DNA from: an uncultured Chromatiales bacterium
GTDB taxonomy: Bacteria > Pseudomonadota > Gammaproteobacteria > Poriferisulfidales > Oxydemutatoraceae
Direction: 5' to 3'
Length of the DNA: 62,922 nucleotides
Assembly (NCBI GenBank): GCA_964347615.1
Contig: CAYFZO010000012.1
Location: forward strand, 1 to 62,922
Shown one piece after another: positions 1 through 62,809 of the stretch; within the stretch, counting starts at the first letter, position 1; every line of letters begins with the position of its first letter. The notes below the pieces were generated by a model that was not told where the DNA came from, searched no databases, and saw only the letters and a list, made by a program, of their open reading frames with translations. Both the position numbers and the translations under genes were made by a program.

Positions 1-3000
1 CACCCGCTCGTCTCCCTCGAGCACCGGGTCCGTCGTCACCCTGACCTCGGTTGATCCCCCGGCAACGAACTGCGCCAGGTCCTGACCCGCGTACCCCGAA
101 AGCGACAGGCTCACGCCGCGAACGACGGCGACCGCCAAAGTATCCGTCGTCACCCGCGCGTTGCCGAGCAACGACGCATCCTCGTCCAGCGTCACGAACA
201 CCGCACCGCTGCTTGCCTCCCGCGTCGCTTCGACGGTCACCGCCGTGGCATTGTCCGTCGGGGTCAACGTCACCGGGCCCCGCGGACTCACCACCGCCAC
301 GCCGGTCGCGCTCAACGAGACCACCAACGCTTCGCCGCTCTGCAACTCAGGCTCGGTTCTCATCGTCACCGTCTGCGAAGCTGTCGCCGGCGCCGCGCCA
401 CCGCGCACCAGCGTAATCCGTCTCGGCTCGAAAAACACCCTGATCTCGCGTTGCTCCACCGTCGCCGACAGGGTCGTTTCAGCCACCCGGACGTTGTCCG
501 GCAACACCGACGCCGCGGCGTTCAGGCTTTCCGCGTCCGGGGTTACATAGTCGGCGTCTCGGTTCGCGCTGACCCGTACGCGCGTGGTCGCGCCGGCGTC
601 GCGACCCAAACTCACCACGGACAGGCTCTCCCCCGACTCCGACCTCACCTCGAGACCCGGACTCGGCGTCAGCGTCACCACCACCGTCTCGCCCGGCTCG
701 AGCAAGTTATCCCTTTCCAACGTCAACTCCACGAGCTCGGATGAGCCGCCCGCAATCAAACTCACTTCCGCCGGATTGAAAGACAACCGCAGATCCCGCT
801 CGACCCGCACCGGCAACGCCGTCTCTTCCAGCCTCACCGCCGACGGGCGCACCGACGTCACCGTCAAGGTCCCTCTCTCACCCGGCGTTCGCGCGAAAAT
901 CAACACCGTGGCCGACCCGGACTCCGTCAAACTCACCCTTTGCGGGTCCACCCCCAGCCCCGGACCTTCGGTCATCACCGCAAAATCCAGCGCTTCGCCC
1001 GGATACAACCCGGAGGTCTCGCCCAAGCGCAGCATTACCTCGGTCGCGTCCGAAACCGTCAGCACCGCCTCGGCCACGTCAAACTCCACCGAAACCGACA
1101 CCACCCTGAGCCTCACGCTCACCGACAACAACGCCTGCTCGTCCGCCGCACCGAACCCGTTGCCGCTCAGGGCCGATGTAATCCCGGTCTCACCGGGCGG
1201 CGCGTCGAAACTCGTCTCAATCCTGACCTCACGCCGAGTCGTCGCACCGTCCAAGCGCAGCGTCAAGACGCTCTCGCCACCGCCGAAGGAAAGCCCCGCC
1301 TGCGCCGTCAGCACCACCGTCGCCGACTGACCCGGAGACAACTCGGGCATCGTCGCCACCGTCACCGTGACGCCGTCACCCTGCTCAACATCGACCTCGT
1401 CCGGCGTGAACGTGACCGATACCGGGTTCACCACCAACGACGACCGCGGAGGTTGCGGCTCGAACCCGACGAAACTTTCCCACGCCGCCGCGACCAGCCC
1501 CGACCGTGTGCCGGCGGCCATCGAAACCCTCACTTCCTCGCGTTGTATCGTTTCGCCGTCCAAGTGCAGCGTCAAAACGTTCCCGGCGCCGTTCAGGAAA
1601 ACCCCGGGCGACGCCGTCAACGTCACCGTCGCCGACTCACCGGGCAGCAACGCCGGAACCGTCCCCAGCGTGAACGCGACGCTGCTGCCCGGGGCGACGT
1701 CGACCGCACCCGGGCTGAACACGACCGAAATCTCCCTGTCGCCCGGCGCTCTCACTTGAACCGAATAATCGTCAAGCGTCAACGAACCGAAGTAGGAGAG
1801 ATCCGCAGAGTTGTCCGCAAGGTCGGTGATGCTCGCGCCGTTGAGATCCAACGCACCGTCAGGAACGACAACGTCCACCAAGGCTTCATCGTCGCTCTGC
1901 GGCGTATACCGGAACGCCAGGGTGTCCCTGGAACTCAAATCCTCGTCGTAGACCGCGGTCCGATCCTCACCGCCTATCTCCAGACTCAACGTCGGGTTGA
2001 GACCGTTCGAACCCGGAATCACGAAAACCCTTTCGCTGAAGCGGACGCGAGCAACGACTTCCTTGCCGGCCTCGACCGTGACCTCCGACACGCTCGGGGA
2101 GACGCCGTCATCCAAGCTGAATTCGTTGTCCCAGTCAATCGTGAAACCGCTGAAGCATTGACCGTTGTATCGCTCATAAATCTCGCAACTGTCAGGCGGC
2201 GGCGATAAGGCAATGAACTCCAGCGTCGGAGACCGCCCCGTCGGAGACACCAAAAATGCTTCGCTTCGCGTCTCGCCCGCCGGAATCGTCACGACGTTGC
2301 CGGGCAGCCCTGATATCTCGGCGTCGGATACCACCGCCCCGGCCCGCAGGGAATAGGGCGCTCCGTCGGACAACACGACCCTGAGCGACAGTTCCCCGGA
2401 TACCGTCGCCCGCGCCGCGGGCTCAAGATCCACCGCCAATTCAAAATTGGCGCCGGGATTGCTACCTAAGTGCAGCACGATCAGATTCGAGAGACCTCGA
2501 AACACTCCTTTCGGCAACGAAACCAATTGGTTGCGGTACAGACGCAGTTTCCTCAGTTCGCCAAGGCCGTCGAACGTGCCTGCCGGCAACGTGGTCAAGA
2601 GACCGTTGCTTAGAAACAGGTTCCTCAGTTCGCCGAGGCCGGCGAATATGTCCGCCGGCAACGTGGTCAGGCGGTTGCCGTCCAGACGCAGGATCTCCAG
2701 TTTGCCGAGGCCGGCGAACGTGCCTGCCGGCAACGTGGTCAAATGGTCGCTGTTGCTTAGAATCAATTCCCTCAATTCGCCGAGGCCGGCGAACGTGCCC
2801 GCCGGCAACGTGGTCAGGCGGTTGCCGTTCAGACGCAGGATCTCCAGTTTGCCGAGGCCGGCGAACGTGCCCGCCGGCAACGTGGTCAATTCGTTGTCGT
2901 GTAGATCCAGTTCCTCCAGTCCGCCGAGGCCCTTGAACGTGCCCGTCGGCAACGTGGTCAATTCGTTGTCGCGTAGATTCAGTCTTCTCAGTCCGCCGAG

Positions 3001-6000
3001 GCCCTCGAACACGCCCGCCGGCAACGTGGTCAATTCGTTGGTGTGCAGATTCAGCTCCCTCAGTTTGCCGAGGCCGAAGAAATCCCCTCTCTTGAGGCTG
3101 CTCAGGCCGGTTCCCGCCAAGTTAAGGTCGGAGCTGTATCCAGCCAGGTCTCTTTCGGTTACTTTGGCGCAACTGAAGACACCGGACAACATAACAAGCC
3201 TCTGGCGAACCAGCCGCGTCCGATCGCAGATCCCTCTCTCGGTAATCTCAACCCTGACCGCCGACGGCGAAGCCAGGATATAGCCGCTCCCGGTCGACGG
3301 GGTCAACGACACCGTGAAAAACTCGCTCGGCCGCTCGGGGACCTCGTCGTCACGGATCGAAACCCGGACGCGCCCGCGCGTCTCGCCCGCCCCAACCATG
3401 ACCGTGCTCGAAACCTCACCGGCGGCATAGTCGCCGCCGTCCGCGGTGTCTCCCGGCGCGCCGACGCGGTAGCCCACGGACAGTGCCGACCTCGCCGGCG
3501 GGGCGACCGTGAAAGGCAACTCGAGCGTCGTCTCAACTTCCTCGGTCGAAATCGCCTCGAGGTCAAACGACACCAAGTGCGTCGCAACAACTTGGCGGGC
3601 GGCGACGAGGGTCAGAAAACCATCCGGCAACGAAAGGTTCGCGGCGACGCCCAAAGCGTCGAGCACGGTCGCGCCGTTCAATTCCAACCCGCTTGCCGAG
3701 GCAATACTGACGTCGCCAAGATCCTCCGCCGCGAGCACATAGCTGAAACGCAAGACGCCGTCGGCGGTTCGACCCGGCAGATAGTCGGCACGATACTCTC
3801 GATTCCCGACCGACAACTGCAACGACGGGACACCGCCCGAGGTATCCACGATCAACCCCCTGTCGAAAACCACGTCGACGAAGATCGTCTCCACCCCGGC
3901 AACGTAGCCGGCGGCGAGGTATCGCGGCGACGAAAAACGCATCGTCGTCGCCTGAGGCGCCGACGGCAACCCGCCTGCTTCGCCTTCATAGGCCAACGAC
4001 CCGCCCGACGCGATTTCAAAACCGGCGTAGCAAGGAGCGTAACCGCAGCCCGAATCGCCCAGCCGATCATCTTGTGAGCGACTCTGGAACGGCAACGACG
4101 GATCGCCCAGACTCAAGCGCAGCGTGTGACCGGTCTGGCGTACGACGCTTAAGGTTTCGCTGCGCGTACTCCCCGCCGGAATTGTCACCGTCGAAGTAGT
4201 CAAGAAGACAGGGGTCGAACCCTCCGCGGTCAACGGAAACGACACCTCAAGCGGTGCGCCCTGGGCCAGGTAAAGGTAAAACTCGAGATCGTCGTTGGCG
4301 GCGCTCACGACTCGGAACGCCGCGGTCAGAACGAAATCCGACGAGCCGTCGTCCGGGTTGTCCTCGAGGCGCAAACTCCCTGAAACGCGCCCCAGACCGC
4401 TCAGGCCCGCGAACAGACCCGCCGGCAGCTCACGAACGTCGTTGTCGTGCAACAGCAACTGCTCCAAGCCACTCAAACCCGCGAAAGCCCGCGGATGCAA
4501 GCTGTTCAGACCGCCCGACGATAAATCCAAGCGCTTCAACCTGGTCAATCCATCGCCGAACGCGTTCACCCTCAGCGCTTGCAAACCGGCGTTGCCGCTC
4601 AAGTCCAGCCGCTCGAGCGCGTCCATATCGTTGAAATCGGAAGGCTCGAAATCGCTCAAACCCGCGGCGCTCGCGTCCAACCGCGACGCAGCCCGCAGCG
4701 CGTAGGTCGGGAAACTCGCGCAATCGACGCCGTCCCGCAGTGCGAGAATCGCGTCGCGGATGCCCGGCGTACGGGCGCATATCGGCGGGTCGACCGCAAC
4801 GTTGTCCAGAACCAGCCGCGCGGAATAATCAATCTCCAGGCCGGAAAAGCACTCTCCGGTACGAGGATGCCTGTGCCGATTCAAGCAGCCATTCGTAGCG
4901 TATGCCGTCACGCCGGAGAACTCCAGTTCGACCGGCGTCACGCCGGAGGGAATGGACGCAGTGAACGTCTCGCTGTGCGTGCTGCCCGCAGGAATCTCCA
5001 CGGCGGGGATGGACAACTCGCCGCCCGTGATCCCAAGATCAGCCTGCAAACGATACGGCGCCCCCTCGCGCAACGTGACCCTGAGGAGCGCGGAATCGCT
5101 AACCTCGCCGACGACTTCAAACCCCAGCGCGAGGGTAAAAGCGCTGCCGGGGTTGTCGTCCAACCTAAGCCCTTTCAGGTTCGAAAGCCCCGCGAAAATA
5201 CCCGCCGGCAACTCGGACAAACCGTTCCCGTGAAGAGACAGATATTCGAGCTTCCCAAGATCCGAAAACAGCCCCGGCGGCAACCCCGACAACCGCAGGT
5301 TGTTATTCAGGTGCAACACTTCCAATCTGCCGAGCCCGGCGAACACACCCGCGGGCAAGGCTCGCAAATCATTGTCGGACAGATTCAGCCACCTCAGCCT
5401 ACCTAGCCCGGCGAACACGCCCTCAGGCAAGGCTCGCAGATCATTGTCACTCAGATTCAGAACCGACAGCTTACCGAGACCGGTGAACACGTCCGCACGC
5501 AATACCTGCAATTGATTGGCATTCAGAAACAGATCATCCAGCTCGCCCAGCCCGGCGAACACGCCCTCAGGCAAGGCTCGCAGATCATTGCCGCTCAGAC
5601 TCAGACCCGACAGCTTACCGAGACCGGCGAACACGTCCGCACGCAAGACCTGCAATTGATTGTCCCTCAGATACAGATTAACCAGCTTGTCCAGCCCGGC
5701 GAACACGCCCTCAGGCAAGGTTTGCAGCGAGTTGCTGTCCATGTCCAATCCTCGCAGATTGACAAGACCCGAGAAATCTCTCGACAAGAGGCTGGTGATG
5801 CCTTGATCGTACAGAATCACGTCGCTTCGCCGTGCCAAGTGCGCGTCGGTTACGGCGGCACAACCGGACCGTCCTGACAGCACGTCCCGAACCGCCGGCG
5901 TACGGTCGCAGACGCCCTCGCTAATCGTAACCCTCAGTGACGACGGCGAGATCACAACGTAATCCGCCCCGGAGGCGGGCGGCATCAGATACAGCGTGAA

Positions 6001-9000
6001 AAACTTGCTCAGCGGACCTATTCCCTGGTCGTCCACGGTTGAAACGGAAATGTATCTCGTTTCCACACCACCGACTCTAACGACGGTGCTCCCGGTCTCC
6101 AGACGGTAGTCGCCGGCGGTGGCCGTGTCGCCGGCGCGACCGGCGCCGTAACCGACGTCAGGCGACGCCCCCTGCAACGGTGCCGGTCTGACGATGAAAG
6201 GCACGAAGCTTTGATCGCCTTCTGCGATTGTAACCGGGCCCGAATCACCGAAACTCACCAAGTGCGACCTGTGGACTTTGCGGTCGCCGGCGGGAGAGGA
6301 AACAAACCTCGCCAACGACGCGTCCACGTTCACGCGGGAGTAACCGGTCACCGTCGCGCCGTTCAGCTGCAAACTCCGTGCCGAAGCGACGCTGAGACCG
6401 TCCGCGTCGAGATCCTCCCGAGCGAGCGCGTAGCTGAAACGCAGTTTGTCGCCGGCGCCCGAGATTGGCGCGGGGATCGGCGCCGGAGTAGGCACATAAG
6501 TCGCGGTGCGCGTGGTCTCCCCGACCTGCAACGTCAGCGACGGTTCGCCGCCCGCAACGTCCACGACGAGCGGCTCCCGGTCGAAAACCACCTCAACCAC
6601 AACCGTCTCCACACCCGCGACGTACCCGTCATCCAAGTATTGCGGCGGCGGGGTGAACTCCACGCGTTCCACCCGCGGCACCGGGGAATCGTCGTAGATG
6701 AACGGCACCTCGCTCGCCGCGATTCGAAATCCGCTGTAGCAAGGCGGGGTGCCGCAGCCGCCTCGCGGCAGCAACGCCGGAACCGGTGTGCCCAAGCGCA
6801 GGGGCGCCGTTCCCTCGGCTTGGCGACCTACCCTGAACCGGGCGCTTTGCACCTCGCCCGCCGGGATTGTCACTTCAGAGGGGGCGAGAGAACCAAACGC
6901 ACCTCCCGCAATCAACGGAACCGTCACGTCGAACGGAGCGCCTTGCGCCAAATACAGAACCAGCTCGGCTTGATTGCCAACCACGCGCACAAACCTGAAC
7001 TCCACGGTGAAAACAAGATCCGGCGAGACGACGTCCGGGTTGCCGCGAAGACGCAGACTGCCCTCGCGCGACCCTAAATCCAGACCCGCGAAGATCCCCG
7101 CCGGCAAGCTTCGCAAATCGTTGTCGTCCAACCGCAGCGACCGTAATCGGAACAGGCCCGAGAAATCGCCCCCTTTCAGGGATGCGATGCCCTCCTCACT
7201 CAGATCGAGCTCGGTTTGGCCGAACAAGTCCGACGACGTTACATCGGTGCACGCGCCGGCGCCGACCGCGGTCGTCAACGCGTCGCGCACCTGCGACGTG
7301 CGGTCGCAAACCCCCTCCTTGATCGTGACCACCACCTGCGCCGGCGAAGCCAGGAAATAGGCGTCGGAACCGGAATCGCTCAGGGACACCGTAAAACTCT
7401 CGCGCGGCGACTCGACCGCCTCGTCGTCCCGGATCGAAATCCGGATGGTGCCGTTCCGTTCGCCCGCGAAAACCGAAATCGCGCCGGCGCCGACGTCGCT
7501 GTAGTCTTCGTCTCCCGCCGTGTCCCCGAACGCACCGATGACGTAGGTGACGCTGGCTGATACCACCGCCCGACTCGCGGTCACACCCAGCTCGAACGTC
7601 TCCCCTTCGACAACCTCGACCGAGGCGACGTCGAACCGCAACAAGCCGCCCGGTCGAACCTTGGGTCCGGCGACGTCCACGACGTCCGCCAGCGACGGGT
7701 TCGCGGACGTGCCGAAAGCGTCGGTGACGACAGCCCCGTTCAGGCGCAAGGCGTTCGCCGAGTTGACGTGGACGCCGTCTTCGTCGACGTCGCCGTCGCA
7801 ATCGTCCCCGCCCCTGCAGCCGATTGTGTAACTGAAACGCAGTCTGCCGCTCGAACCCGACGCCGACGCGTAGGTCGCGGTGCTCACAGCACCTGCAATC
7901 TCCAGCATCAACTCCGGTTCGCCGTCCGAGGTATCTACGTTCAACTCCCGGTCGAAAACCACCTCGACGGTGAACGCCTCCGCACCCGGGGTGGTGCGAT
8001 CGTTGAGATAGGCGTCGTCGAAGTAGCGCGGCACCGAGAACTCGACGCCCGTCACCCGCAGCGGCGGTGGCGGCGTACCGGAGTAGACCAACGGCTCACC
8101 CGACGCGATCTCAAACCCGGCGTAGCAGGGGACGTAGCCGCAACCCGAGTTACTTTGGGAGTTACCCTCCGAGTCACCTCCCGAGTCACCTTGCGGCAAC
8201 GACGGCGCAACGCCCAAACTCAATTTCAGCGCCTGTCCGGCGGCGCGGGTGACGCGCATGGTCTCGCCTCGCGTGCTTCCCGCCGAAATCCCTACTGTCG
8301 AGGGAACCGAACCGGTGGAACCCGTCGCGGTCAATGGAAAACTCAGGGCAAACGGCGCACCTTGAGGCAAATACAGATAAAACTCCAAGTCGTCGCCCGA
8401 CGCGCCCGCGACCTTCAGCTGCGCGGTCAATACAAAGTTCAAAGAGCCGTCGTTGGAGTCGAGGTCGGGGTTGTTGCCCTCAAGACGCAAGCTCCCCGAA
8501 GCGCTCCCCAGACCGGTCAGACCCTCGAAGATCCCCGCCGGCAAGGTTTGCAGATCGTTGTCCTGCAACAGCAACTGCTCCAGACGCCCGAGACCCGCGA
8601 AAGCTTTCGGGTGCAACTCACGCAACCCGCCCGACGACAAATCCAGCCGCTTCAGGTCGCCGAGATAGTCGAACACCGACTCGCCGAGCGCTTGCAACGG
8701 CGCGTTGCCGCTCAAGTCCAAACGTTGAAGCCGAATCATGGGCACGAAGTCTTCCCTCGAAATTGCGCTCAAGCCCACGTTGCTCGCGTCCAGATACGCC
8801 GCAAACCCCAGTGCTTCGTAGGGAAAGTCGGCGCAGCCCGCGGGGCTGCCCGGCAGCTGCAGGATCGCGTTGCGAATCCCCGGCGTTCGACCGCACACCG
8901 TCGGCCCGGAACCGGGGGAACCGGGCGTCGCCGGGAAAGACCGCTCGTCCGAGGTGATTTCGAAACCCTGAAACGCCGTGAGTTGGTCGAACGGCAGACG

Positions 9001-12000
9001 GCCAAGAATATCTCCGGGGCTAACGTTCATTCCCAAGGTCCGTGCGCCAGGTGCACGGGTCACGAAAAACACCTCGCTTTGCGTACTGCCCGCCGCAATC
9101 GCCACCGTCGGACTGCTCGACGCACCGCCGACCACCGAAACGCTGACGTCCAAATAGTATGGTGCACCGTGGCGCAGCGTCAGCCTGATGGGGACGGGCT
9201 GGTCCACCGCCAGCGGCGACTGCGGGCCGCCGGCAAGCTCAACCCTCAGCGGCAAACTGAAAGGCGAACCCGGGTTGGCGCCTAAGTCAAGCGCCTGCAA
9301 ACCCGTGAGCCCAGAAAACACGCCTTCCGGCAAGACCCGCAGAAAGTTGCCGTTCAACCGCAATTCCTGCAGACCGGCCAGACCTGAGAAATCTCCCCGC
9401 TTGACCGCGACCATTCGCGTAGAACTCAGGTCAAGACGCCGTCTTGAAGACAGATACGCCTCTGTGACGGCGGCGCAACCGGAGAACCGCGATGGGGTCA
9501 GCGCCTCACGCACTTTCGGCGTACGGTCGCAAACCCCTTCGGCGATTACCACCCGCAGCGTGGACGGCGAGGCCACGAAGTAGTCGTCCGAAGGAGACAA
9601 CGACACCGTGAAAAACTCCCTGGCCGGTTCGATCTCCTCGTCGTCCCGGATTGAAACCAAAACCGTGCCGCGCGTCGCGCCCGCCTCAACCGTGACCGTG
9701 CCGTCGCCGGCGTCAATGTAGTCGTCGTCATCGGCGGTATCGCCGGGGGCACCGACTCGATAGTCCACCGTCAGACCAACCGACGTCGGCGGATCCAGAC
9801 GAAAAGACAACTCGGCCGTCGTTCCTTCCGTGAACGACGCCAAACTCGTTTCAAACGACAACCGACTGATCCGATGGACTTGACGCTCGGCGACCGGGGT
9901 AACAAAGCGCGCCAGAGAAAGGGCCGCAGCCACCGAGAAAGCGTCGCGCACGGTCGCACCGTTCAGCTCCAACCCATCCGAAACGACGCTGACGCCGTCC
10001 TCATCCACGTCATCCGACGCGAGCGCGTAACTGAAACGCAGCCCGTCGACGCCGGTTCGACCCAGCAGGTAAGACGCTCTGCGCACCTTGCTCCCGACCT
10101 GCAACCGCAGCGACGGCACGCCGCCCGAGGTATCTATAATCAGCGCCTTGTCGAAAATCACGTCAACGGTCATCGTCTCCATCCCCGCAACGTAGCCGTC
10201 GTCGAAGTAACGCGGCGCGGAAAACTCGACCGCCGTGACTTGCGCCGCTTGTCGCGTACCGTCGTAGACGAACGGCGGCCCCGAGGCGATTTCAAAACCG
10301 GCGTAGCAGGGAGCGTAACCGCAACCCGAGTCGCCCCCCGAATTGTCTTCTGCCGAATCGTCTTCTGAGTCAACCCCTGAGTTACCTCCTGAGTTACCCC
10401 CTGAGTTACCTTGCGGCAACGACGGCGGATCACCCAAACTCAAACGCAGAGTCTGATCGGATGCACGATTCACGCTCAAGATCTCGCTTCGCGTGCTCCC
10501 CGCCGGAATCACCACCGTCGAGGACGTGGCCGAGGATGAACCCGGAGATGCCCCTTGAGTGGTCAACAAAAACGACAGCTCAAACGGCGCACCTTGCGCC
10601 AAGTAGAGATAGAAATCGAGCGCGTCGCCCGCGACCTGCGCGACCCGAAACACCGCGGGCAAAACGAAACGCGGCGAGTCGTCGTCCGGATTGCCCTCGA
10701 CGCGCAGGCTCCCCGACGGCGCACCCAGACCGCTCAAGCCCGAGAATATCCCCGCCGGCAGTTCACGCAGGTCGTTGTCGTACAACAGCAACTGCTCCAA
10801 GCTTTCAAGACCGGAGAAAGCCCGGGAATCCAGCGTCCTCAGGCCCATCGACGACAGGTCCAACCGCTTCAAACTGCCCAAATCGCCGAACGCGTTAGCG
10901 CCCAACGCCTGCAAACCGGCGCTGCCGCTCAAATCCAGACGTTCAAGCGACTCCATGCCGGCGAAATTACCCGACGTCAAACCGTTCAAGTCCGCGTCGC
11001 TCAAGTCCAGATACGTCGCAATCCTCAACAAGTCGGTCGGAACGTTGTCGCAGTTGTTGCCGCTCCACAGTTGAATGAGGGCGTTTTGGACCGCCTGCGT
11101 GCGGTCGCACACCGACGTATTGGCCGAGACGTCGAGCAGAGTAAATGGAGCGGGTGCCACGATTTCCAAGCCGCTGAAACAGCGCCCATCGGCGCCTCGC
11201 TGCCAAGATATACAGTCCTCGGGCAGCGGCGACGGGTTGTCAAGCCGCATTACGAAAGCTTGCGCGTTGGCAGGAAACACTTCAAACGTCTCGCTCTGCG
11301 TCGCGCCCGGCGGAATCTCCACGACGGAGACCGACGCACTACCGCCTTCTACCCTAAGATCGCCTCGCAAACGATACGCCGCCCCCTCGCGCACCGTGAG
11401 CTTGACCGGTACGCGCTCGATGTCACCGCTGCCGTCCGTCAGCAACTGCATACCGGCCCCGCCTGCAAACTCAAATCTCAACGTTGACCTGAACGTCGTC
11501 CGCCCGGAATCGTCCAAAGTAAGCGCACGCAAACTCTCCGCAATCCCAGAAAAAATACCCGCCGGCAGTTCGGTCATGGCGTTGTTACCCAACCGCAACC
11601 AATTCAACCCATCGGTGCCTGAAAACACGCCCGCAGACAACGAAGACAGCGGGTTGTCGGTCAGAAGCAACCACCACCCCGCCTGACCGACGCCGGAGAA
11701 CACGCCCGGTGGCAACGAGCTCAACCGGTTGCCTTGCAGACGCAACCGGTTCAGCTTGCCCAGCCCGGAGAACGCGTCCCGACGCAACGATTGGAGTTGA
11801 TTGTTCCTCAACTCGAGCGTGCCCAGATTGTCCAGTCCCTCGAACAAGCCCGACGGCAAACTTTGCAACCGGTTATCGTTCAACAGCAGGCGGGCTAAGT
11901 TGGTCAAGCCCGAAAAGTCCTTTGAACGCAGGCTGGTGACGCCTGCATCGTCCAAGTTCAGCACGTTGTCCACCCCGGCCAAGTCCTGGTTCGTCACGTC

Positions 12001-15000
12001 GAAGCAATTTTCCTTGCCGATCGCCGACAGCAACGCGTCCTGAACCTGCGGCGTACGGTCGCAAATCCCCACCTTGACCGTAACCGACGTCCGCGACGGA
12101 GAAAGCAGAACGTAATCATCCGAAGGCGTCAGCCGCACCTCGAAAGTCTCGCCGCCGTCCCCGACCGGAATCCGAATCATCCCGCGCCGCGACCCCGCCG
12201 GGACCACAACTCTGCCGTCGTAAGCAAAGTCGGCGCCCTCCACGGCGTAGTCGACGACGAACGTCAACCGCGCCGCGGGCAAGACGTTGAAAGGCAGCTC
12301 CAGAATCGAATCTTCCCCGACCGAGACCGTGGTGGCGTCAAACGATAAGGCAATCCCTTGTTGGACTTTGTATCTGGAATCGGCATCGTCGGCACCATCC
12401 GGCAGACGCACGGAGTTAGACTCAAATTCATGAATCAACCCCGTGGCGGTGGCGCCGTTCAATTTCAACCCGTCTCTTGAGACGACCCTGATGCCGTTCA
12501 CGTCAACGTCGTCCTCCCTGAGCGCGTAGGCGAACGTCCAGACGTCGGTGGCGCTCGCGGCCGGAACGTAACTCGCGACGCGCGTCTTGTCCCCGACCCG
12601 CAGTTCCAACCACGGCACGCCACCCTGCTCCGAAGGGATCAAGATCAACTTGTCGTTGAATCGAACCTCGGCGGTAATCGTCTCCGCGCCCGCAACGTAG
12701 CCGCCCGCGTCTTGCGGACGCGGGGTGAACTCGAAACCGTCTATCGATACGGTGCCTCGAGACCCGTAGGTGTATCCGTCAAACCCAAAACTGAATCCAA
12801 AGCCGGTATAGCAGCGGGCGCGACCGCAGCCACCCGCAGGCAACGACGGCAGGACGCCTTCAGGGTAATGAAAACCCAAATCCGGCGGTTCGCCGTTAAC
12901 TCGGGCGGGAAGCACTGCATCATTGCTTTGGCTTCGTACGTCACCGGCGGCGAAGGAAAAATCGGCATTTCTTATAAATCTAATTACCGGATGCTCCGTC
13001 CGAATACCGACGTCTTCCAGAATGAAGTTAAACGGTGCGCCTTGGGCCAAGTAAGGGCGGATGGTGACCACTTCGTCGTTGCTTCGCGGGCTGGTCCCGT
13101 CAATGCCCATCTGGATGACGAAATCAAAGGGCGTACCCGGATTGTTTTCGAGAAACAGATAGCTGGAAGCGTCGCCCAGCCCAACGAGACCTTCGAATAT
13201 CCCCGCCGGTAGGATTTGCAATTCGTTGTCGCGCAAATCCAGCCCCCGCAAGCTGCTGAGGCCCAGAAAATCCCTCGGGTTGAGGCGTTCTATCCCGCGA
13301 TCGCTCAGATCCAAGGTGACCACGCCGGCCAAATCCTCGTTGGTCACCGCGGTGCAATCGTCGCGCCCGGTTACCTCCATCAGCGCGTCGCGCACCTGCG
13401 GCGTGCGATCACAAAGCCCTTCCTCGATCTCGATTGCCACCGTCGCTACGGCGATGGGAACGTAGTCGCCCGAATCCCGCAGGGACACCGTGAAGGTTTC
13501 ACGCGCCCGACCGACCCAGTCGTTGTCGGGAACGGAAACTTGGATACGCCCGCCGGATGCACCCGCCGGAATCCGTCCCGTCGGGAAGCCGCTGATGAGC
13601 GCGCCGGAGAAGTCAGACGAGAAGTTCAGATCGAACGGCCCGCTCACCGAAGGGTCGAGGGTGAAATCCAGAAACACCTGGCTCCCTTCCCTGACCGAAG
13701 CCGTGGCGACGTCAAACATTATCACGGACAGCCGCTGAACTTTTTGGTCGGGATACGTTCCACCGTGATCGGCCAAATCCAGATCCGGAGAGTTATGTCC
13801 AACCAACATATCGTCGATGGTCGCGCCGTTCCTCTCGATTCGCTCGAGGGCGATGCCGTCGTCGTCCGCCGGGTCGTCTCTCAAGAGACGGTAGCGGAAT
13901 CGCATCGCGTCGGAACCGCCTTCGGACGGCACGTAAGTCGCGCGCCTCTCGGCGTTTCCGATTGTCACAACTAGTTCAGGTTTACCTTCGACGACGACGA
14001 TCCTGCTGTCAAAAAGCACCTCGATCACGATTACGTCGAAGCCCGTGACGTAGCCGTCTGAATTTTCCCGCGACGAGACAAAACGGACGTCGCTGACCTC
14101 TGCAGGGGGCCAAAATATCAAGTTGTAGTTGTATATCTCATAGTCAATGGGGTTCCGGTAGCAACCCGGACGCAACCTGCAATTCGCGTCGGGAACATCC
14201 GCGGGGGCTCTGATCACAAAGCCGTCGTAGCAGGGGGAATAACCGCAGCCCGAATTGCCCTGAGGCAACGACGGCAACGCGGTGAACGACACCCGGACGT
14301 CGGGTATTTCGGGGGGATCGCTTCTGGTGTCCGAATGTCTGACCCGGTCTTTTCCCTCGCTGGACAATCCTCCTGCAGAAAGCGACCCGCCCGAGCCGGC
14401 AGGGTCGCTGAATTGACCGCCTTCCACCTTCCATTCGAATTCCACGTCAAACGGTGCGCCTTGGGCCAAGTAGGCAGAGAAGTCGACCCACGAGAAATCA
14501 GAAGTTGCATCGACCCTATGCGCCCTGACCTCCACCACAAGGGCAAAAGGCGTCCTCGGATCGCCGTCGGGGCCCGGGTTGCCCGAAAGGAGCAAGCTCC
14601 CGCCGTAGCCGTCAACGGCGGCGGGATTGAAATCGCGTCCCTCGAATAGCTTCGCGCGCAAGAACCCCAATCGGTTGTTGCGCAAATCCAACTGTTTCAA
14701 TTTGGGAGTATACCGAAGCAGGTCGGCTTCGAGATCCTGCAGTCGGTTGTCGCTCAAATCCAACCGCCTCAAATCGTCGAGGCCGGCGAAGCGGTTACCC
14801 CTGAGTGCTCCCCTCAACCGGTTGTGCTCCAAGTTCAACTCGCGCAGGTTGCTCAGTCCCCTGAATGCTCCTTCCCACGGCAACAATTCCAATCGGTTGT
14901 ACGACAGATCCAAGACCCGCAGTTGGTCGACGTCGCTGAACGCGGAGGGCTTCAAAAACCGCAACTCGTTGTCCGACAGATTCAGCGTTTGCAGACCGGT

Positions 15001-15363
15001 TAAGCCGTCGAACACGCCCGCCGGCAACATTTCTAACCGGTTGCCCGATAAATTCAACGTTTTCACGCCGCCCAGCCCGCTGAAATCCATCGACTTCAAA
15101 TCGCTGATGCTCCTGCCGCTCAGATCCAGAGCGGTTATGCCTTGCAACGTGTTGGGATTGAAAGCGACGCAACCCCCGTCCGTGTCCGTCGCAACAAGGA
15201 TTGCAAATTGAACCGCCAGTGTTCGTTCACACAGCGGCGGGTCGAAACCCTGCGCTTGCGCCTGAATGAAGAAACCCGTGAAGAGCCCCGCGACCGTGCT
15301 CGGCACGACCACCGAGACAAGTGCGCGCAATCGCCGCGAGATCGGCTGTAAGCTAGCCGTCAT
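1..15363 (-). CDS. Giant secreted/surface leucine-rich-repeat protein with Calx-beta-like and Ig-like repeats (>5120 aa, 3' end beyond the window)
   Basis: ATG at 15363 (in-frame TAG upstream at 15379-15381) reads MTASLQPISRRLRALVSVVVPSTVAGLFTGFFIQAQAQGFDPPLCERT..., signal-peptide-like, followed by LxxLxLxxNxLxxLPxxxFxGL repeats. The same frame is still coding-like at base 1 (...VRVTTDPVLEGDERV). The ORF track lists no stop-bounded minus ORF in this frame, implying it is open to the edge. I translated segments, not every codon. Confidence 0.9.
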   Translation of the reverse strand, partial: MTASLQPISRRLRALVSVVVPSTVAGLFTGFFIQAQAQGFDPPLCERTLAVQFAILVATDTDGGCVAFNPNTLQGITALDLSGRSISDLKSMDFSGLGGVKTLNLSGNRLEMLPAGVFDGLTGLQTLNLSDNELRFLKPSAFSDVDQLRVLDLSYNRLELLPWEGAFRGLSNLRELNLEHNRLRGALRGNRFAGLDDLRRLDLSDNRLQDLEADLLRYTPKLKQLDLRNNRLGFLRAKLFEGRDFNPAAVDGYGGSLLLSGNPGPDGDPRTPFALVVEVRAHRVDATSDFSWVDFSAYLAQGAPFDVEFEWKVEGGQFSDPAGSGGSLSAGGLSSEGKDRVRHSDTRSDPPEIPDVRVSFTALPSLPQGNSGCGYSPCYDGFVIRAPADVPDANCRLRPGCYRNPIDYEIYNYNLIFWPPAEVSDVRFVSSRENSDGYVTGFDVIVIEVLFDSRIVVVEGKPELVVTIGNAERRATYVPSEGGSDAMRFRYRLLRDDPADDDGIALERIERNGATIDDMLVGHNSPDLDLADHGGTYPDQKVQRLSVIMFDVATASVREGSQVFLDFTLDPSVSGPFDLNFSSDFSGALISGFPTGRIPAGASGGRIQVSVPDNDWVGRARETFTVSLRDSGDYVPIAVATVAIEIEEGLCDRTPQVRDALMEVTGRDDCTAVTNEDLAGVVTLDLSDRGIERLNPRDFLGLSSLRGLDLRDNELQILPAGIFEGLVGLGDASSYLFLENNPGTPFDFVIQMGIDGTSPRSNDEVVTIRPYLAQGAPFNFILEDVGIRTEHPVIRFIRNADFSFAAGDVRSQSNDAVLPARVNGEPPDLGFHYPEGVLPSLPAGGCGRARCYTGFGFSFGFDGYTYGSRGTVSIDGFEFTPRPQDAGGYVAGAETITAEVRFNDKLILIPSEQGGVPWLELRVGDKTRVASYVPAASATDVWTFAYALREDDVDVNGIRVVSRDGLKLNGATATGLIHEFESNSVRLPDGADDADSRYKVQQGIALSFDATTVSVGEDSILELPFNVLPAARLTFVVDYAVEGADFAYDGRVVVPAGSRRGMIRIPVGDGGETFEVRLTPSDDYVLLSPSRTSVTVKVGICDRTPQVQDALLSAIGKENCFDVTNQDLAGVDNVLNLDDAGVTSLRSKDFSGLTNLARLLLNDNRLQSLPSGLFEGLDNLGTLELRNNQLQSLRRDAFSGLGKLNRLRLQGNRLSSLPPGVFSGVGQAGWWLLLTDNPLSSLSAGVFSGTDGLNWLRLGNNAMTELPAGIFSGIAESLRALTLDDSGRTTFRSTLRFEFAGGAGMQLLTDGSGDIERVPVKLTVREGAAYRLRGDLRVEGGSASVSVVEIPPGATQSETFEVFPANAQAFVMRLDNPSPLPEDCISWQRGADGRCFSGLEIVAPAPFTLLDVSANTSVCDRTQAVQNALIQLWSGNNCDNVPTDLLRIATYLDLSDADLNGLTSGNFAGMESLERLDLSGSAGLQALGANAFGDLGSLKRLDLSSMGLRTLDSRAFSGLESLEQLLLYDNDLRELPAGIFSGLSGLGAPSGSLRVEGNPDDDSPRFVLPAVFRVAQVAGDALDFYLYLAQGAPFELSFLLTTQGASPGSSSATSSTVVIPAGSTRSEILSVNRASDQTLRLSLGDPPSLPQGNSGGNSGGNSGVDSEDDSAEDNSGGDSGCGYAPCYAGFEIASGPPFVYDGTRQAAQVTAVEFSAPRYFDDGYVAGMETMTVDVIFDKALIIDTSGGVPSLRLQVGSKVRRASYLLGRTGVDGLRFSYALASDDVDEDGVSVVSDGLELNGATVRDAFSVAAALSLARFVTPVAERQVHRISRLSFETSLASFTEGTTAELSFRLDPPTSVGLTVDYRVGAPGDTADDDDYIDAGDGTVTVEAGATRGTVLVSIRDDEEIEPAREFFTVSLSPSDDYFVASPSTLRVVIAEGVCDRTPKVREALTPSRFSGCAAVTEAYLSSRRRLDLSSTRMVAVKRGDFSGLAGLQELRLNGNFLRVLPEGVFSGLTGLQALDLGANPGSPFSLPLRVELAGGPQSPLAVDQPVPIRLTLRHGAPYYLDVSVSVVGGASSSPTVAIAAGSTQSEVFFVTRAPGARTLGMNVSPGDILGRLPFDQLTAFQGFEITSDERSFPATPGSPGSGPTVCGRTPGIRNAILQLPGSPAGCADFPYEALGFAAYLDASNVGLSAISREDFVPMIRLQRLDLSGNAPLQALGESVFDYLGDLKRLDLSSGGLRELHPKAFAGLGRLEQLLLQDNDLQTLPAGIFEGLTGLGSASGSLRLEGNNPDLDSNDGSLNFVLTAQLKVAGASGDDLEFYLYLPQGAPFALSFPLTATGSTGSVPSTVGISAGSTRGETMRVTRAAGQALKLSLGVAPSLPQGDSGGDSEGNSQSNSGCGYVPCYAGFEIASGEPLVYSGTPPPPLRVTGVEFSVPRYFDDAYLNDRTTPGAEAFTVEVVFDRELNVDTSDGEPELMLEIAGAVSTATYASASGSSGRLRFSYTIGCRGGDDCDGDVDEDGVHVNSANALRLNGAVVTDAFGTSANPSLADVVDVAGPKVRPGGLLRFDVASVEVVEGETFELGVTASRAVVSASVTYVIGAFGDTAGDEDYSDVGAGAISVFAGERNGTIRISIRDDEAVESPRESFTVSLSDSGSDAYFLASPAQVVVTIKEGVCDRTSQVRDALTTAVGAGACTDVTSSDLFGQTELDLSEEGIASLKGGDFSGLFRLRSLRLDDNDLRSLPAGIFAGLDLGSREGSLRLRGNPDVVSPDLVFTVEFRFVRVVGNQAELVLYLAQGAPFDVTVPLIAGGAFGSLAPSEVTIPAGEVQSARFRVGRQAEGTAPLRLGTPVPALLPRGGCGTPPCYSGFRIAASEVPFIYDDSPVPRVERVEFTPPPQYLDDGYVAGVETVVVEVVFDREPLVVDVAGGEPSLTLQVGETTRTATYVPTPAPIPAPISGAGDKLRFSYALAREDLDADGLSVASARSLQLNGATVTGYSRVNVDASLARFVSSPAGDRKVHRSHLVSFGDSGPVTIAEGDQSFVPFIVRPAPLQGASPDVGYGAGRAGDTATAGDYRLETGSTVVRVGGVETRYISVSTVDDQGIGPLSKFFTLYLMPPASGADYVVISPSSLRVTISEGVCDRTPAVRDVLSGRSGCAAVTDAHLARRSDVILYDQGITSLLSRDFSGLVNLRGLDMDSNSLQTLPEGVFAGLDKLVNLYLRDNQLQVLRADVFAGLGKLSGLSLSGNDLRALPEGVFAGLGELDDLFLNANQLQVLRADVFTGLGKLSVLNLSDNDLRALPEGVFAGLGRLRWLNLSDNDLRALPAGVFAGLGRLEVLHLNNNLRLSGLPPGLFSDLGKLEYLSLHGNGLSELPAGIFAGLSNLKGLRLDDNPGSAFTLALGFEVVGEVSDSALLRVTLREGAPYRLQADLGITGGELSIPAVEIPAGSTHSETFTASIPSGVTPVELEFSGVTAYATNGCLNRHRHPRTGECFSGLEIDYSARLVLDNVAVDPPICARTPGIRDAILALRDGVDCASFPTYALRAASRLDASAAGLSDFEPSDFNDMDALERLDLSGNAGLQALRVNAFGDGLTRLKRLDLSSGGLNSLHPRAFAGLSGLEQLLLHDNDVRELPAGLFAGLSGLGRVSGSLRLEDNPDDGSSDFVLTAAFRVVSAANDDLEFYLYLAQGAPLEVSFPLTAEGSTPVFLTTSTVTIPAGSTRSETLSVVRQTGHTLRLSLGDPSLPFQSRSQDDRLGDSGCGYAPCYAGFEIASGGSLAYEGEAGGLPSAPQATTMRFSSPRYLAAGYVAGVETIFVDVVFDRGLIVDTSGGVPSLQLSVGNREYRADYLPGRTADGVLRFSYVLAAEDLGDVSIASASGLELNGATVLDALGVAANLSLPDGFLTLVAARQVVATHLVSFDLEAISTEEVETTLELPFTVAPPARSALSVGYRVGAPGDTADGGDYAAGEVSSTVMVGAGETRGRVRVSIRDDEVPERPSEFFTVSLTPSTGSGYILASPSAVRVEITERGICDRTRLVRQRLVMLSGVFSCAKVTERDLAGYSSDLNLAGTGLSSLKRGDFFGLGKLRELNLHTNELTTLPAGVFEGLGGLRRLNLRDNELTTLPTGTFKGLGGLEELDLHDNELTTLPAGTFAGLGKLEILRLNGNRLTTLPAGTFAGLGELRELILSNSDHLTTLPAGTFAGLGKLEILRLDGNRLTTLPADIFAGLGELRNLFLSNGLLTTLPAGTFDGLGELRKLRLYRNQLVSLPKGVFRGLSNLIVLHLGSNPGANFELAVDLEPAARATVSGELSLRVVLSDGAPYSLRAGAVVSDAEISGLPGNVVTIPAGETRSEAFLVSPTGRSPTLEFIALSPPPDSCEIYERYNGQCFSGFTIDWDNEFSLDDGVSPSVSEVTVEAGKEVVARVRFSERVFVIPGSNGLNPTLSLEIGGEDRTAVYDEDLSSRDTLAFRYTPQSDDEALVDVVVPDGALDLNGASITDLADNSADLSYFGSLTLDDYSVQVRAPGDREISVVFSPGAVDVAPGSSVAFTLGTVPALLPGESATVTLTASPGVFLNGAGNVLTLHLDGETIQREEVRVSMAAGTRSGLVAAAWESFVGFEPQPPRSSLVVNPVSVTFTPDEVDVEQGDGVTVTVATMPELSPGQSATVVLTAQAGLSFGGGESVLTLRLDGATTRREVRIETSFDAPPGETGITSALSGNGFGAADEQALLSVSVRLRVVSVSVEFDVAEAVLTVSDATEVMLRLGETSGLYPGEALDFAVMTEGPGLGVDPQRVSLTESGSATVLIFARTPGERGTLTVTSVRPSAVRLEETALPVRVERDLRLSFNPAEVSLIAGGSSELVELTLERDNLLEPGETVVVTLTPSPGLEVRSESGESLSVVSLGRDAGATTRVRVSANRDADYVTPDAESLNAAASVLPDNVRVAETTLSATVEQREIRVFFEPRRITLVRGGAAPATASQTVTMRTEPELQSGEALVVSLSATGVAVVSPRGPVTLTPTDNATAVTVEATREASSGAVFVTLDEDASLLGNARVTTDTLAVAVVRGVSLSLSGYAGQDLAQFVAGGSTEVRVTTDPVLEGDERV
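2513..3075 (-). repeat. Near-identical 72/75-nt tandem repeats encoding LRR units
   Basis: ggcaacgtggtca recurs at 2585, 2657, 2729, 2804, 2876, 2948, 3020 (spacing 72,72,75,72,72,72), with a variant at 2513. Confidence 0.9.
5330..5720 (-). repeat. 72-nt LRR-coding tandem repeats with a 144-nt higher-order period
   Basis: gcccggcgaacacgccctcaggcaagg recurs at about 5406, 5550 and 5694, alternating with gacagcttaccgagaccgg units. Confidence 0.85.
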
Positions 15364-15721
15364 GCCGCCCAGCCCCCTCTAATAGAGGGGGGGATCTGGG
15401 CAGGGGTACCATTACATCGAACCTCGGCTTCACCCCTGACGGCGACGGCGTAGCGACAACGGAAAGCCGTTTGCCGAGACGGTTCACAGTCAAGAGACGT
15501 GGTGGCGGCGCAGTGATATATCGAGAGAGGGACGACGCTGAGCCACGGTCGTCGCGTACGCTCGGGCACTTACGATTGCCCCGAGCAGAAATATCTTGTA
15601 TCCCCGTCGCCCAAGTCTGCGTCCATCGGACACCCCTCCGATAAACGACTTCGCCGAACCCCCTTGGTAGAGCCATACCCATGATCCCAGCCCCCGCGTA
15701 TTCCGGATGCTAAAGACAAAC

Positions 15722-15761
15722 GAACCCTGGTATCGGGGCGACCCCCGAGCGACCGGGGTTC
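15722..15761. terminator. Long hairpin, possible terminator/attenuator upstream of the giant LRR gene
   Basis: gaaccctggt-a-tcgggg-cgac-ccccga-gcg-accggggttc folds into an extended stem, followed by T-rich runs on both strands (atttcttct; gtttgtcttt). Confidence 0.4.
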
Positions 15762-16110
15762 ATTTCTTCTCGATTATAGGTACGGAACTGCGCTCCAGTC
15801 AACCGGTTGATATGGGGTCAGCAGATATGAGGCAAAATCAGGTGCCGACGCCAAGATGCCCAAGCTACGCCGTATTGGTGGGCGCCCGACCGCGATTGAC
15901 CGGCGCCAAATCGGCCTCTCCCTGAAATTACCCCGATATGGCAAATAGAACGCCTTGCGCACGGTTCGGTTGACCCGCCGACGCAACCGCCCGTCCCTGT
16001 TTCCGGGAACCGTGCCGCCGTCAACGCGGAAGCTTGTACGAAATCCGCTCACGCGACAATTTCGTTTGAGTTCGGCACTATCGTGAGCACGCGTCAGATA
16101 CGTTGCTAGT

Positions 16111-16989
16111 GGGAACGTAATGTACGTAAATCCGCAAGAGATTGACAAACAGGTAGTAAAATAACGCAATGAAAGTACACCGCACAATCCGTATTCAGCC
16201 GCTTGGGCGGCAAGCGGCACGCATGAAGCATGAAGCCGGGAATTGGTACGCGTATCCGGTGTTCAATATGGAAGCGGCAGAGGCGTCAGTCCCGCGTTCA
16301 ATCCGGGGCGTCGGAATAAACCGGAGCGTCGGTCAGTTGGCGACGTCGGACGGGATGATTGACAGAAAGCGTAATCAGGAGGTTCTTGAGACTCATCTCC
16401 GACGTTACCGGCGGATGACGCTGCGCCGTGACACGGGCAGCCGTAAGAAACGCGTTCCACCGCCAGGTCGTTATCTGCGCGCTAAGTTGCCGCACCGGAA
16501 GACGCGCAAGAAGTTGCTTCACGCGCGAACGGACTGGTGCCACCGGGTATCGCGTGAGTTGACGAACCGCTACGACGTCGCGTATTCGGAAGAGCTGAAC
16601 GTCAAGGGCGTGACCGCCGGCGCGAAAGGCACGGCGGAAGCCCCGGGCAAGCACGTTGCGCAGAAAGCCGGTTCGGACAAGTCGATACCGGATACGGCAT
16701 GGAGCATCGAGCGGTGCCTGGGCTGCAAGATGAGCGTCGAAAAGGTACCGGCGGCATACACGAGCCAGCGTTGCAACGCCTGCGGGCGTACGGAAAAGGC
16801 GAATCGCAACACGCAAAGCGAATTCAAGTGCCGCAAGTGCGGACGTCGGGACAACGCGGAGATGAACGCCGCGTTGAACATCTTAGCTTTCAGGAATGGG
16901 GCGGCTGGACGTGGAGGCGGCAACGTCGGTCGGCCTTTGAAGCGTCAAGTTGATGCAGGATCCCCTGCGAATTTATGTATATAACTCCC
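16111..16989 (+). mobile_element. TIR-bounded tnpB element, copy E1 (non-autonomous, internally deleted)
   Basis: Degenerate left end gggaacgtaatgtac at 16111; right end tatataactccc at 16978-16989; flanks ttgctagt / ttgttact match at 6/8 (possible TSD); contains the tnpB ORF. Confidence 0.7.
16169..16984 (+). CDS. tnpB: TnpB-family RNA-guided endonuclease homologue, internally deleted, with altered RuvC residues (possibly a pseudogene)
   Basis: GINRSVG (RuvC-I), YSEELNV (RuvC-II), YTSQRCNACG...FKCRKCG zinc finger, NAEMNAALNI (RuvC-III); only 271 aa. Confidence 0.85.
   Translation: MKVHRTIRIQPLGRQAARMKHEAGNWYAYPVFNMEAAEASVPRSIRGVGINRSVGQLATSDGMIDRKRNQEVLETHLRRYRRMTLRRDTGSRKKRVPPPGRYLRAKLPHRKTRKKLLHARTDWCHRVSRELTNRYDVAYSEELNVKGVTAGAKGTAEAPGKHVAQKAGSDKSIPDTAWSIERCLGCKMSVEKVPAAYTSQRCNACGRTEKANRNTQSEFKCRKCGRRDNAEMNAALNILAFRNGAAGRGGGNVGRPLKRQVDAGSPANLCI

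Positions 16990-62733: not shown

Positions 62734-62809
<76 letters not shown>

Follow-up and report, generated by a model that had tools for sequence, protein, structure and literature searches.

A giant open frame of leucine-rich-repeat modules in an uncultured Chromatiales bacterium: probable part of a surface adhesin family with a lineage-specific C-terminal tag

Internalins such as InlA and InlB are built from a cap, a run of leucine-rich repeats (LRRs), an immunoglobulin-like (Ig-like) inter-repeat domain, and a C-terminal wall anchor. In anchored giant adhesins the stalk lies C-terminal to the binding heads, and adhesins of the LapA type have a polarity opposite to that of N-terminal heads and a C-terminal stalk. 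LRR proteins are described as a recurrent hallmark of symbionts of sponges and other invertebrates, with one symbiont genome reported to encode 13 LRR proteins of 1.6–4.8 kb annotated as adhesion or matrix-receptor-like (PMC4453008). The present analysis concerns a giant open frame in the assembly of an uncultured Chromatiales bacterium (GCA_964347615.1, contig CAYFZO010000012.1), contained in a stretch of 62,922 nucleotides, hereafter the window. The frame occupies positions 1–15363 of the minus strand and is read here, with a probability of roughly 0.6, as the N-terminal three quarters of a ~6,800-residue surface poly-LRR adhesin that ends in a lineage-specific C-terminal sorting or anchoring tag.

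Translation and open reading frame (ORF) listing give a single stop-free frame of 5,121 aa, which begins with an ATG at 15363 and is still open at its 3′ end where the contig starts. The stop-to-stop frame extends just five codons 5′ of this ATG, and a Shine-Dalgarno-like GAGGGGG run lies upstream. The window begins at base 1 of contig C12 in the genome (G000; 2,118,892 bp in 77 contigs, rated 97.2% complete), and hence the frame is cut by the end of the contig and not by the edge of the window. Because the frame runs off that end, it is omitted from the default ORF listing; an open-ended listing shows it. The sequence-only reading, made by a model from the letters of the window, had proposed a hidden minus-strand frame of more than 5,100 aa that was missing from the ORF track, and both parts of this proposal stand, the full translation being free of in-frame stops. 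The stretch is present in 10 sequencing-run entries from six studies, and all 30 of 30 bins of the giant gene are covered in four independent runs (three studies), as contigs of a few hundred bases, none of which bridges the whole stretch or usefully lengthens the 3′ end. One of the six studies also includes a very large Hi-C run, no more than a hint of a eukaryote genome project. All five in-frame indel variants found at a depth of ≥5 in the independent runs preserve the frame (+12, −3, −1/+1, −3, −1/+1); a single event, at depth 4.4, nets −1.

The closest paralog, on contig C29, is a complete gene whose 6,811-aa product is 83% identical to, and collinear with, all 5,121 aa of the window protein, continuing for ~1,680 aa of stalk past the collinear region. 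Window positions 1–600 match an inner segment of this gene (C29:14909-15506) at 94% identity. Since this complete paralog is collinear, ~1,700 aa are probably missing from the window protein, which would measure ~6,800 aa in full. Gene lengths of this order are not assembly artefacts, because a 7,364-aa orthologue of the C29 gene—92% identical to the C29 product and 82% to that of the window—sits on a 1.16-Mb contig of a public-archive assembly. An overlap search among contig ends for the missing 3′ part found none; the best candidate for it is a fragment on contig C64 (G000:C64:3302-4331), the 3′ end of a family gene at a contig end, which is 86% identical over 613 nt to the C29 tail and has the same tag codons and post-stop bases as C29.

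Every complete giant ORF of the genome that was inspected ends in the twelve residues L(R/K)IRVFLEGALE followed by a stop, and a six-frame scan returns 25 ORFs with this ending. Across the 25 copies, 296 of 300 residues are identical, and each of the 12 codons occurs in two to six synonymous forms; the constraint thus acts on the peptide and not on the DNA. Among the eight residues that precede the tag, six positions vary among 8–11 amino acids and two among five, with Gly at position −3 in 22 of 25 copies, and in nine aligned C-termini the mean column identity is 40% before the tag and 100% within it. The stop codon is TAG in 15 copies, TAA in nine, and TGA in one, and the post-stop sequences fall into unrelated groups, some of which are internally alike downstream. 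This downstream likeness, together with the highly recombinogenic look of the family and its tandem paralogs (contig C7 has three), could be taken to mean that the conserved 3′ end is a DNA element—a recombination or gene-conversion site that shuffles cassettes, or part of a terminator—and not a peptide signal. Such a reading is, however, next to negligible: synonymous variation at all 12 codons beside near-complete residue identity, the use of all three stops, the unrelated groups of downstream sequence, and the retention of the peptide in congener G004 with yet other codons all speak against it, and the codon pattern largely refutes it. Stop-codon read-through or recoding at the tag was also considered and rejected, on the same diversity of stops and of downstream sequences between groups.

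The tag has a narrow distribution. In a sample of 41 genomes from the genus, family, and order (its own included), two contain matches to a degenerate DNA pattern of the tag: G000, with 24 copies, and G004, with 10 copies in an assembly that is 85% complete. Three closed genomes from this genus lack the pattern, as do all 400 other genomes sampled across the class. Searched against 1.84 billion representatives, the last 330 aa of the C29 product match 17 clusters, nine of which end with the tag, the other eight being short fragments or having different ends. One type A module (described below) returns 92 giant proteins, of which 10 end with the tag and the rest, from other lineages, end otherwise. 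Recurrent C-termini of giant LRR proteins elsewhere (P0012–P0093) include ...ATRKMLIRK, ...FRLGGTLRL, ...LQLEGKLEF, and ...LKAMLRRANKLREDFG, and ...LRF is another of the endings seen; it appears that LRR heads of a similar kind have been joined to a variety of anchors or signals. By analogy with its paralogs, the window protein should end in a free, unstructured L-R-I-R-V-F-L-E-G-A-L-E (...LRIRVFLEGALE-stop).

In a model of the last 230 residues of the C29 product, two beta sandwiches (predicted local distance difference test [pLDDT] 82.0) are followed by a coil of ~20 residues that includes the tag (pLDDT 57–60). The tag possesses no hydrophobic helix, basic tail, folded C-terminal domain (CTD), or membrane-spanning segment, and it matches none of the curated sorting-domain models (LPXTG, PEP-CTERM, GlyGly-CTERM, type IX secretion system [T9SS] CTD, and others in NCBIfam). 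At E ≤ 1, NCBIfam returns no family for the last 100 or the last 2,183 aa of C29; no Pfam or NCBIfam match explains the latter region, and none to an autotransporter (type V) barrel (PF03797 or similar) occurs within it, the Ig-like domains running up to the tag in the model. Foldseek with the C29 stalk model retrieves generic tandem Ig-like domains only, and an ESM Atlas search with the paralog C-terminus gives best scores of ≤0.87, to unrelated clusters. The motif RVFLEGAL was not found in the literature searched, and searches on giant adhesins and sorting signals returned nothing specific. An autotransporter barrel, a type I secretion system (T1SS) signal, or a known anchor had been envisaged at the C-terminus; the complete paralog has none of these and carries the 12-residue tag instead. 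A role in sorting or retention is suggested for the tag by its invariance at the peptide level, its free C-terminal position, its disorder in the model, and the fact that all complete members of an otherwise divergent family carry it.

The main rival explanation is that the proteins are released, for example via a type II system, and act in the surroundings as soluble decoys or multivalent binders, the tag being a secretion or release signal that is perhaps cleaved. GspA/B/C/D genes are present, the family proteins carry N-terminal signal peptides, and a short, unstructured tag that lacks a membrane-spanning segment and matches no known anchor family would suit release. A C-terminal stalk of ~20 or more Ig-like domains behind the heads is, however, the layout of an adhesin that is anchored; congeners without the tag possess the type II system just as well; and no linear C-terminal signals are known for type II substrates. 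Release is thus rated as rather unlikely. Directly adjoining the GspA/B/C/D genes are three tandem 742–745-aa Wzy_C (O-antigen-ligase-type) genes, one with TPR (L039, G000:C23:8000-27000, at 10465–17231 on the minus strand).

Export by a type I system, as for the giant repeats-in-toxin (RTX) adhesins LapA, SiiE, and MpIBP, would make the conserved C-terminus a T1SS signal. Giant size, Ig-like extender repeats, a beta domain of Ca-binding type, and a conserved extreme C-terminus are all shared with such proteins, and the genome has one TolC-family gene. The window family nevertheless has Sec-type signal peptides, and no RTX/HemolysinCabind or T1SS-related Pfam or NCBIfam model matches the window protein or the last 2,183 aa of the paralog. 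The best match to a HlyD-type membrane fusion protein (TIGR01843) scores 35.1 bits against a cut-off of 208.65, in an assembly of 97.2% completeness, so that absence is not proven; just three ABC_membrane (ABC exporter) matches occur, none of them beside the loci in question. In addition, N-terminal heads with a C-terminal stalk are the reverse of the LapA arrangement, and type I export is considered highly improbable.

Residues 1–37 (15253–15363; all features of the giant gene are on the minus strand) comprise RRLR, a hydrophobic run, and AQA before Q38, and are signal-peptide-like as read from the translation; of the 19 family ORFs with a contig-internal 5′ end, 14 have a start of the A-x-A-Q type. 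Behind this start, ten cassettes each open with a C(D/E/G/A)RT cap, at aa 45, 651, 1101, 1419, 1945, 2157, 2686, 3152, 3529, and 4046, with a second Cys 16–20 residues after each (C-x(16-20)-C). The protein contains 42 Cys in total, all in 21 local pairs 5–20 residues apart, with none in the stalk, as would be expected if the protein were oxidised outside the cytoplasm.

The Pfam family LRR_8 matches all ten cassettes and exceeds its cut-off of 27 bits in nine (that at 7042–7320 scores 24.0), with E values of 9e-97 and 1e-105 for the two halves of the window protein. Type A cassettes are located at 14554–15231 (cassette 1; LRR_8 190.6 bits), 13132–13413 (cassette 2; 35.5), 10687–11109 (cassette 4; 73.9), 8467–8895 (cassette 6; 59.6), 7042–7308 (cassette 7; 24.0, under the cut-off), and 4357–4779 (cassette 9; 78.4). 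Type B cassettes are located at 11497–12063 (cassette 3; 91.5 bits), 9277–9531 (cassette 5; 44.4), 5167–5910 (cassette 8; 164.3, with a 72-nt tandem array at 5330–5727), and 2467–3228 (cassette 10; 193.2, with a 72-nt tandem array at 2540–3076). The upper coordinate of each is the nucleotide position of its cap. The ten LRR intervals named from sequence alone are thereby borne out, a cap standing at the upper end of each. Each cassette holds three to nine typical-class repeats (tandem LxxLxLxxNxL) with a period of 24 aa, or 72 nt, and nine of the ten close in an LxLxxNP-like cap, as judged by eye in the translation and as had been said of most of them; cassette 3 closes with LTLDDSGRTTF.

Compared by sequence with solved structures, cassette 1 is closest to IGFALS (E 2.5e-59), followed by LRRC15, TLR13, LGR4/5, and TLR3, down to ~1e-31, and these matches to animal receptors begin behind the cap. 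The Pfam families LRRNT and LRRCT match none of the ten cassettes, even at E ≤ 10, and Internalin_N and LRR_adjacent match neither cassettes nor tails. The cap, judged on its sequence, is a two-Cys cap different in kind from animal LRRNT/LRRCT; the repeats are thus of the animal-receptor type that the sequence-only reading had recognised, but the caps it had likened to those of animal receptors are not.

Behind the cassettes lie two kinds of tail. In the six type A cassettes the tail is ~370 residues long and comprises a beta sandwich (D1), a Cys loop with an Ig-like domain (D2), and a Calx-beta-like domain (D3); A tails align well among themselves and with those of paralogs. They lie at 13414–14553 (tail A1; D1, Cys loop, D2, and D3 by alignment, with no Pfam match), 12064–13131 (A2; D1–D3, no Calx-beta Pfam match), 9532–10686 (A3; D1, a Gly/Ser/Asp-rich insert, D2, and D3, Calx-beta at 19.1 bits), 7309–8466 (A4; D1–D3, 21.7 bits), 5911–7041 (A5; D1–D3, no Pfam match), and 3229–4356 (A6; D1–D3, 28.0 bits). 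In the four type B cassettes the tail is a D1 homologue, with the Cys loop in three of the four by alignment: 11110–11496 (B1), 4780–5166 (B3), and 2089–2466 (B4) have the loop, and 8896–9276 (B2) is the sole tail without a Cys pair. Because B tails align with D1 of A tails, B modules are A modules minus the Ig-like and Calx-beta domains. The motifs L(A/P)QGAP and CGxxxCY each occur six times, as had been counted before, and six full tails follow; the four remaining cassettes, although they have no long tail, are not bare.

Tail A6 was modelled with AlphaFold2 (AF2) as three beta domains (pLDDT 73.3). Its predicted D3 resembles the Calx-beta structure 3e9t (TMt 0.84, rmsd 2.3), integrin beta4 (3fq4; 0.80), and NCX1 (2dpk; 0.73), and superposition on 3e9t, 3ead, 3fq4, 3gin, and 2dpk spans ~117 columns (TMt 0.73–0.84, rmsd 2.3–3.6). 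A profile of eight tails finds the Ca2+-binding domain (CBD) of NCX1 among solved structures, with E 1.1e-7. As modelled, D3 therefore has the Calx-beta/CBD beta-sandwich fold known from NCX1, CALX, and integrin beta4. The acidic-loop motifs DD..E and DY are conserved in the alignment of A tails, Ca2+ binding being putative. A search with a single tail for related loci gave one unrelated weak Calx-beta-like match, in Brevifollis.

The modules, 28–57% identical to one another, follow the order AABAB-AABAB. A clean five-module internal duplication was considered and rejected, since the module similarities fail to pair up: modules 4 and 9 are reciprocal best matches, but 3 and 8 are not (8 is closest to 10), nor are 1 and 6, 2 and 7, or 5 and 10. 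The higher-order repetition that had been proposed is thus visible in module order and only partly in module similarity. Between module 10 and the stalk stands one lone D2-type Ig-like domain (1744–2088; aa 4426–4540), recognised by the D2 motif ...LDLNGASITD... of the A-tail alignment. The stalk itself starts at 1–1743 and continues past the contig as Ig-like repeats without Cys, with a best self-shift of 103 aa and with the paralog stalk model to support it; the repeat of ~100 aa formerly assigned to bases 1–2200 is confirmed for this part, the lone domain being distinct from it.

Selection on the LRRs was estimated as the ratio of nonsynonymous to synonymous substitution rates (dN/dS). Between the window gene and the C29 gene (dS 0.15), dN/dS is 2.29 (bootstrap 1.2–5.7; 125 codons) at the five exposed x positions of the LxxLxLxxN motif, compared with 0.05 at scaffold positions and 0.58 in the rest of the protein; in five further paralog pairs the scaffold value is 0–0.12. 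By these sequence comparisons the putative binding faces are changing fast and probably diversifying, and the expectation of several different LRR heads in one chain is upheld by both the divergence between modules and the pace of change at the exposed positions.

The family occupies 357,186 of the 2,118,892 bp (16.9%) and 52 of the 77 contigs, as measured with three members as tblastn queries at E ≤ 1e-10. Most contigs of 2.5–23 kb (C27–C77) are largely pieces of family genes. Six large contigs link family genes to other genes: C12 (housekeeping genes), C14 and C18 (secretion-system genes), and C7, C16, and C17, the last three consisting of 70–77% non-family sequence. The strict cap motif has 78 occurrences on 23 contigs. 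G000 contains more than 50 copies of the A tail and G004 contains 34; in the rest of the 41 relatives it shows up only as three weak single-domain matches. A 1,156-aa frame on contig C68 (L149, G000:C68:1-3471), open at both ends, Ser/Leu-rich, and with a stalk-like repeat of ~100 aa, was not picked up by the three family queries at E ≤ 1e-10; it probably represents a diverged stalk from this family or from a sister family. Weak single-tail-domain matches also fall in long open frames of two relatives without the family (G005:C1:1697743-1698042, 11,262 aa; G034:C1:597764-598057, 4,898 aa), and thus other kinds of giant protein exist in the wider group.

Expenditure on this scale would also be compatible with a protective or structural coat unrelated to a host—a dense layer against phage or grazers, or for aggregation—with the LRR variation reflecting an arms race with phage. 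When the closed congener G003 is subtracted from G000, 126 segments (288,403 bp) remain, and the largest of these islands (L133–L146) are dominated by anti-phage defence: restriction-modification including Eco57I-type, DndB/D/E, SIR2, KAP NTPases, Schlafen-like, GmrSD, and HipA genes. CRISPR-Cas genes (Cas3 with GSU0053/GSU0054-type Cas proteins, and Cas4) and some unknowns also lie there. Set against a coat, though not excluding it, are the closeness of the LRR type to animal extracellular receptors and the recurrence of LRR proteins in sponge and other invertebrate symbionts (PMC4453008). The coat explanation is held to be improbable; the idea of host recognition is, by analogy, compatible with the receptor-like LRR type and with that literature.

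If the window gene does encode a tagged surface adhesin, its product would leave the cytoplasm by Sec, form 21 local disulfides, and be presented on the exterior of the cell. It would consist of ten internalin-type units in series, each a two-Cys helical cap followed by LRRs with a beta sandwich directly behind; six units would be spaced by an Ig-like and a Calx-beta domain, and a long stalk of ~103-aa Ig-like repeats would follow the heads. The concave faces of the LRRs would be diversified ligand-binding sites, held away from the cell by the beta domains and the stalk, and an envelope component would recognise the C-terminal dodecapeptide in trans, thereby sorting all family members to the cell surface or retaining them there. 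A bolder version, put forward only tentatively, holds that the dodecapeptide serves as recognition tag in a hitherto undescribed route of sorting or anchoring at the outer membrane, used by at least 25 Sec-exported proteins of megadalton class, and that the family is a receptor repertoire of 78 or more capped LRR heads whose concave faces are diversifying.

Several observations weigh against the reading as a tagged surface adhesin. No RNA run is among the listed runs that hold the stretch, and expression and localisation of the giant protein are putative; the window copy is without its C-terminus, its own tag being deduced from paralogs. In the five further paralog pairs, dN/dS at the x positions ranges from 0.70 to 2.02 with intervals that include 1, so that a value above 1 is significant in one of six pairs, and these pairs are non-independent, comprise 65–125 codons each, and yield estimates that ignore gene conversion and recombination. 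The confidence of the tail A6 model is moderate (predicted template modelling score 0.49), just eight or nine sequences having been fed to each AF2 model, and Pfam Calx-beta (PF03160) exceeds its cut-off of 27 in only one of six tails, two falling below and three giving no match; the Calx-beta assignment made from the letters alone is thus backed by fold and profile more than by Pfam. Small contigs in a binned assembly account for many of the family pieces, although family genes stand beside other genes on the six large contigs named above. Of the three secretins found genome-wide in G000—one in the GspA/B/C/D cluster and two in pilus-like clusters—all are also present in the tag-free congeners G001–G003 and in G005 (two have clear orthologs in G004), and hence no secretin co-distributes with the family. 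Finally, the 20 longest of the 126 segments specific to G000 relative to G003 (83 ORFs) contain no tag partner or envelope candidate.

Upstream of the giant gene, ~800 bp contain no convincing ORF (15364–16168), and ORFs of 109 and 148 aa have no Pfam match. A 271-aa ORF at 16169–16984 on the plus strand, ~800 bp upstream, has only the C-terminal Cas12f1/TnpB-type TNB domain (48.8 bits) and is probably the remnant of a TnpB-type transposon gene. Further upstream are a Na/Ca exchanger family gene, a SIS/CBS gene, LptB, and LptA, then HPr kinase, RapZ, HPr, and enzyme I, and beyond these ClpB, PilC/PilD-type genes, ZapD, and rpoBC. This context is Gram-negative, gammaproteobacterial-type housekeeping (ZapD, LptA/B, RapZ/HPrK), ZapD being presumed to have the corresponding taxonomic range, and no dedicated secretion genes are found beside the giant gene in the window neighbourhood examined. 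The sole Rfam match in the window is a tRNA gene at 62737–62809 on the minus strand (69.9 bits). A fused ATP sulfurylase/adenylylsulfate kinase gene at 28708–30429 on the plus strand would serve synthesis of 3′-phosphoadenylyl sulfate, and four tandem near-identical ORFs elsewhere in the genome (L147, G000:C8:50307-54214), which have no Pfam match at 1e-6 and are absent from G003, carry PKTGGTT, a motif that we take to be typical of sulfotransferases. A capacity to sulfate surface molecules is possible on this basis.

What is distinctive here is the presence of ten different internalin-like heads in one chain, the devotion of about a sixth of a reduced 2.1-Mb genome to such genes, and a 12-residue end that is shared by the complete members, kept at the peptide level, unlike known sorting signals, and confined to a narrow lineage. 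Should the tag prove to be a signal for sorting or anchoring, it would point to a new way in which diderms bring very large Sec-exported proteins to the cell surface, and the tag-free congeners with closed genomes make the sorting machinery findable by subtraction. The fast-evolving concave faces are defined candidate ligand-binding sites for finding what the organism recognises. There is a practical warning as well: genes of this family break short-read assemblies and are invisible to ORF lists that omit open-ended frames.

In kind, the protein is a variant of known giant adhesins and of LRR eukaryote-like proteins, and the novelty lies in the family-wide tag and the scale of expansion. With internalins it shares a helical cap, an LRR solenoid, a beta sandwich directly behind, and, for the chain as a whole, a sorting signal at the C-terminus (putative here); it differs in having repeats of 24 rather than 22 residues, a two-Cys cap, ten units per chain, and a Gram-negative envelope (LptA/LptB), and neither LPXTG nor GW is matched in the window protein tails or the paralog C-terminus. 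The LRR proteins of sponge and other invertebrate symbionts (PMC4453008) are likewise bacterial typical-class LRR proteins expanded in particular symbiont lineages, but the window family has about ten heads per chain, is ~5–10 times longer, takes up its 16.9% of the genome, and bears an invariant tag. Animal LRR receptors (IGFALS, LRRC15, LGR4/5, TLR3/13, and VLR) have the same 24-residue consensus and include the best solved-structure matches of cassette 1; the window cassettes are without LRRNT and LRRCT and stand in a bacterial context.

Giant RTX adhesins (LapA, SiiE, MpIBP, and BapA) are alike in their megadalton scale, tandem Ig-like extenders, Ca-binding beta domains, and ligand-binding modules held off the cell, and the MpIBP retention region (5irb) appears at rank 36 in a Foldseek search with the tail A6 model; the window protein, in contrast, has a Sec signal peptide, no RTX repeats, and N-terminal heads, in a genome with no HlyD-type membrane fusion protein over cut-off. 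The tag, for its part, resembles LPXTG/sortase, PEP-CTERM/exosortase, GlyGly-CTERM/rhombosortase, and T9SS CTD systems in being a short, lineage-restricted C-terminal element on dozens of divergent surface proteins. It departs from them in its 12 residues without hydrophobic helix, basic tail, or folded CTD, and in that no sorting enzyme was found among the 20 largest segments specific to G000 relative to G003.

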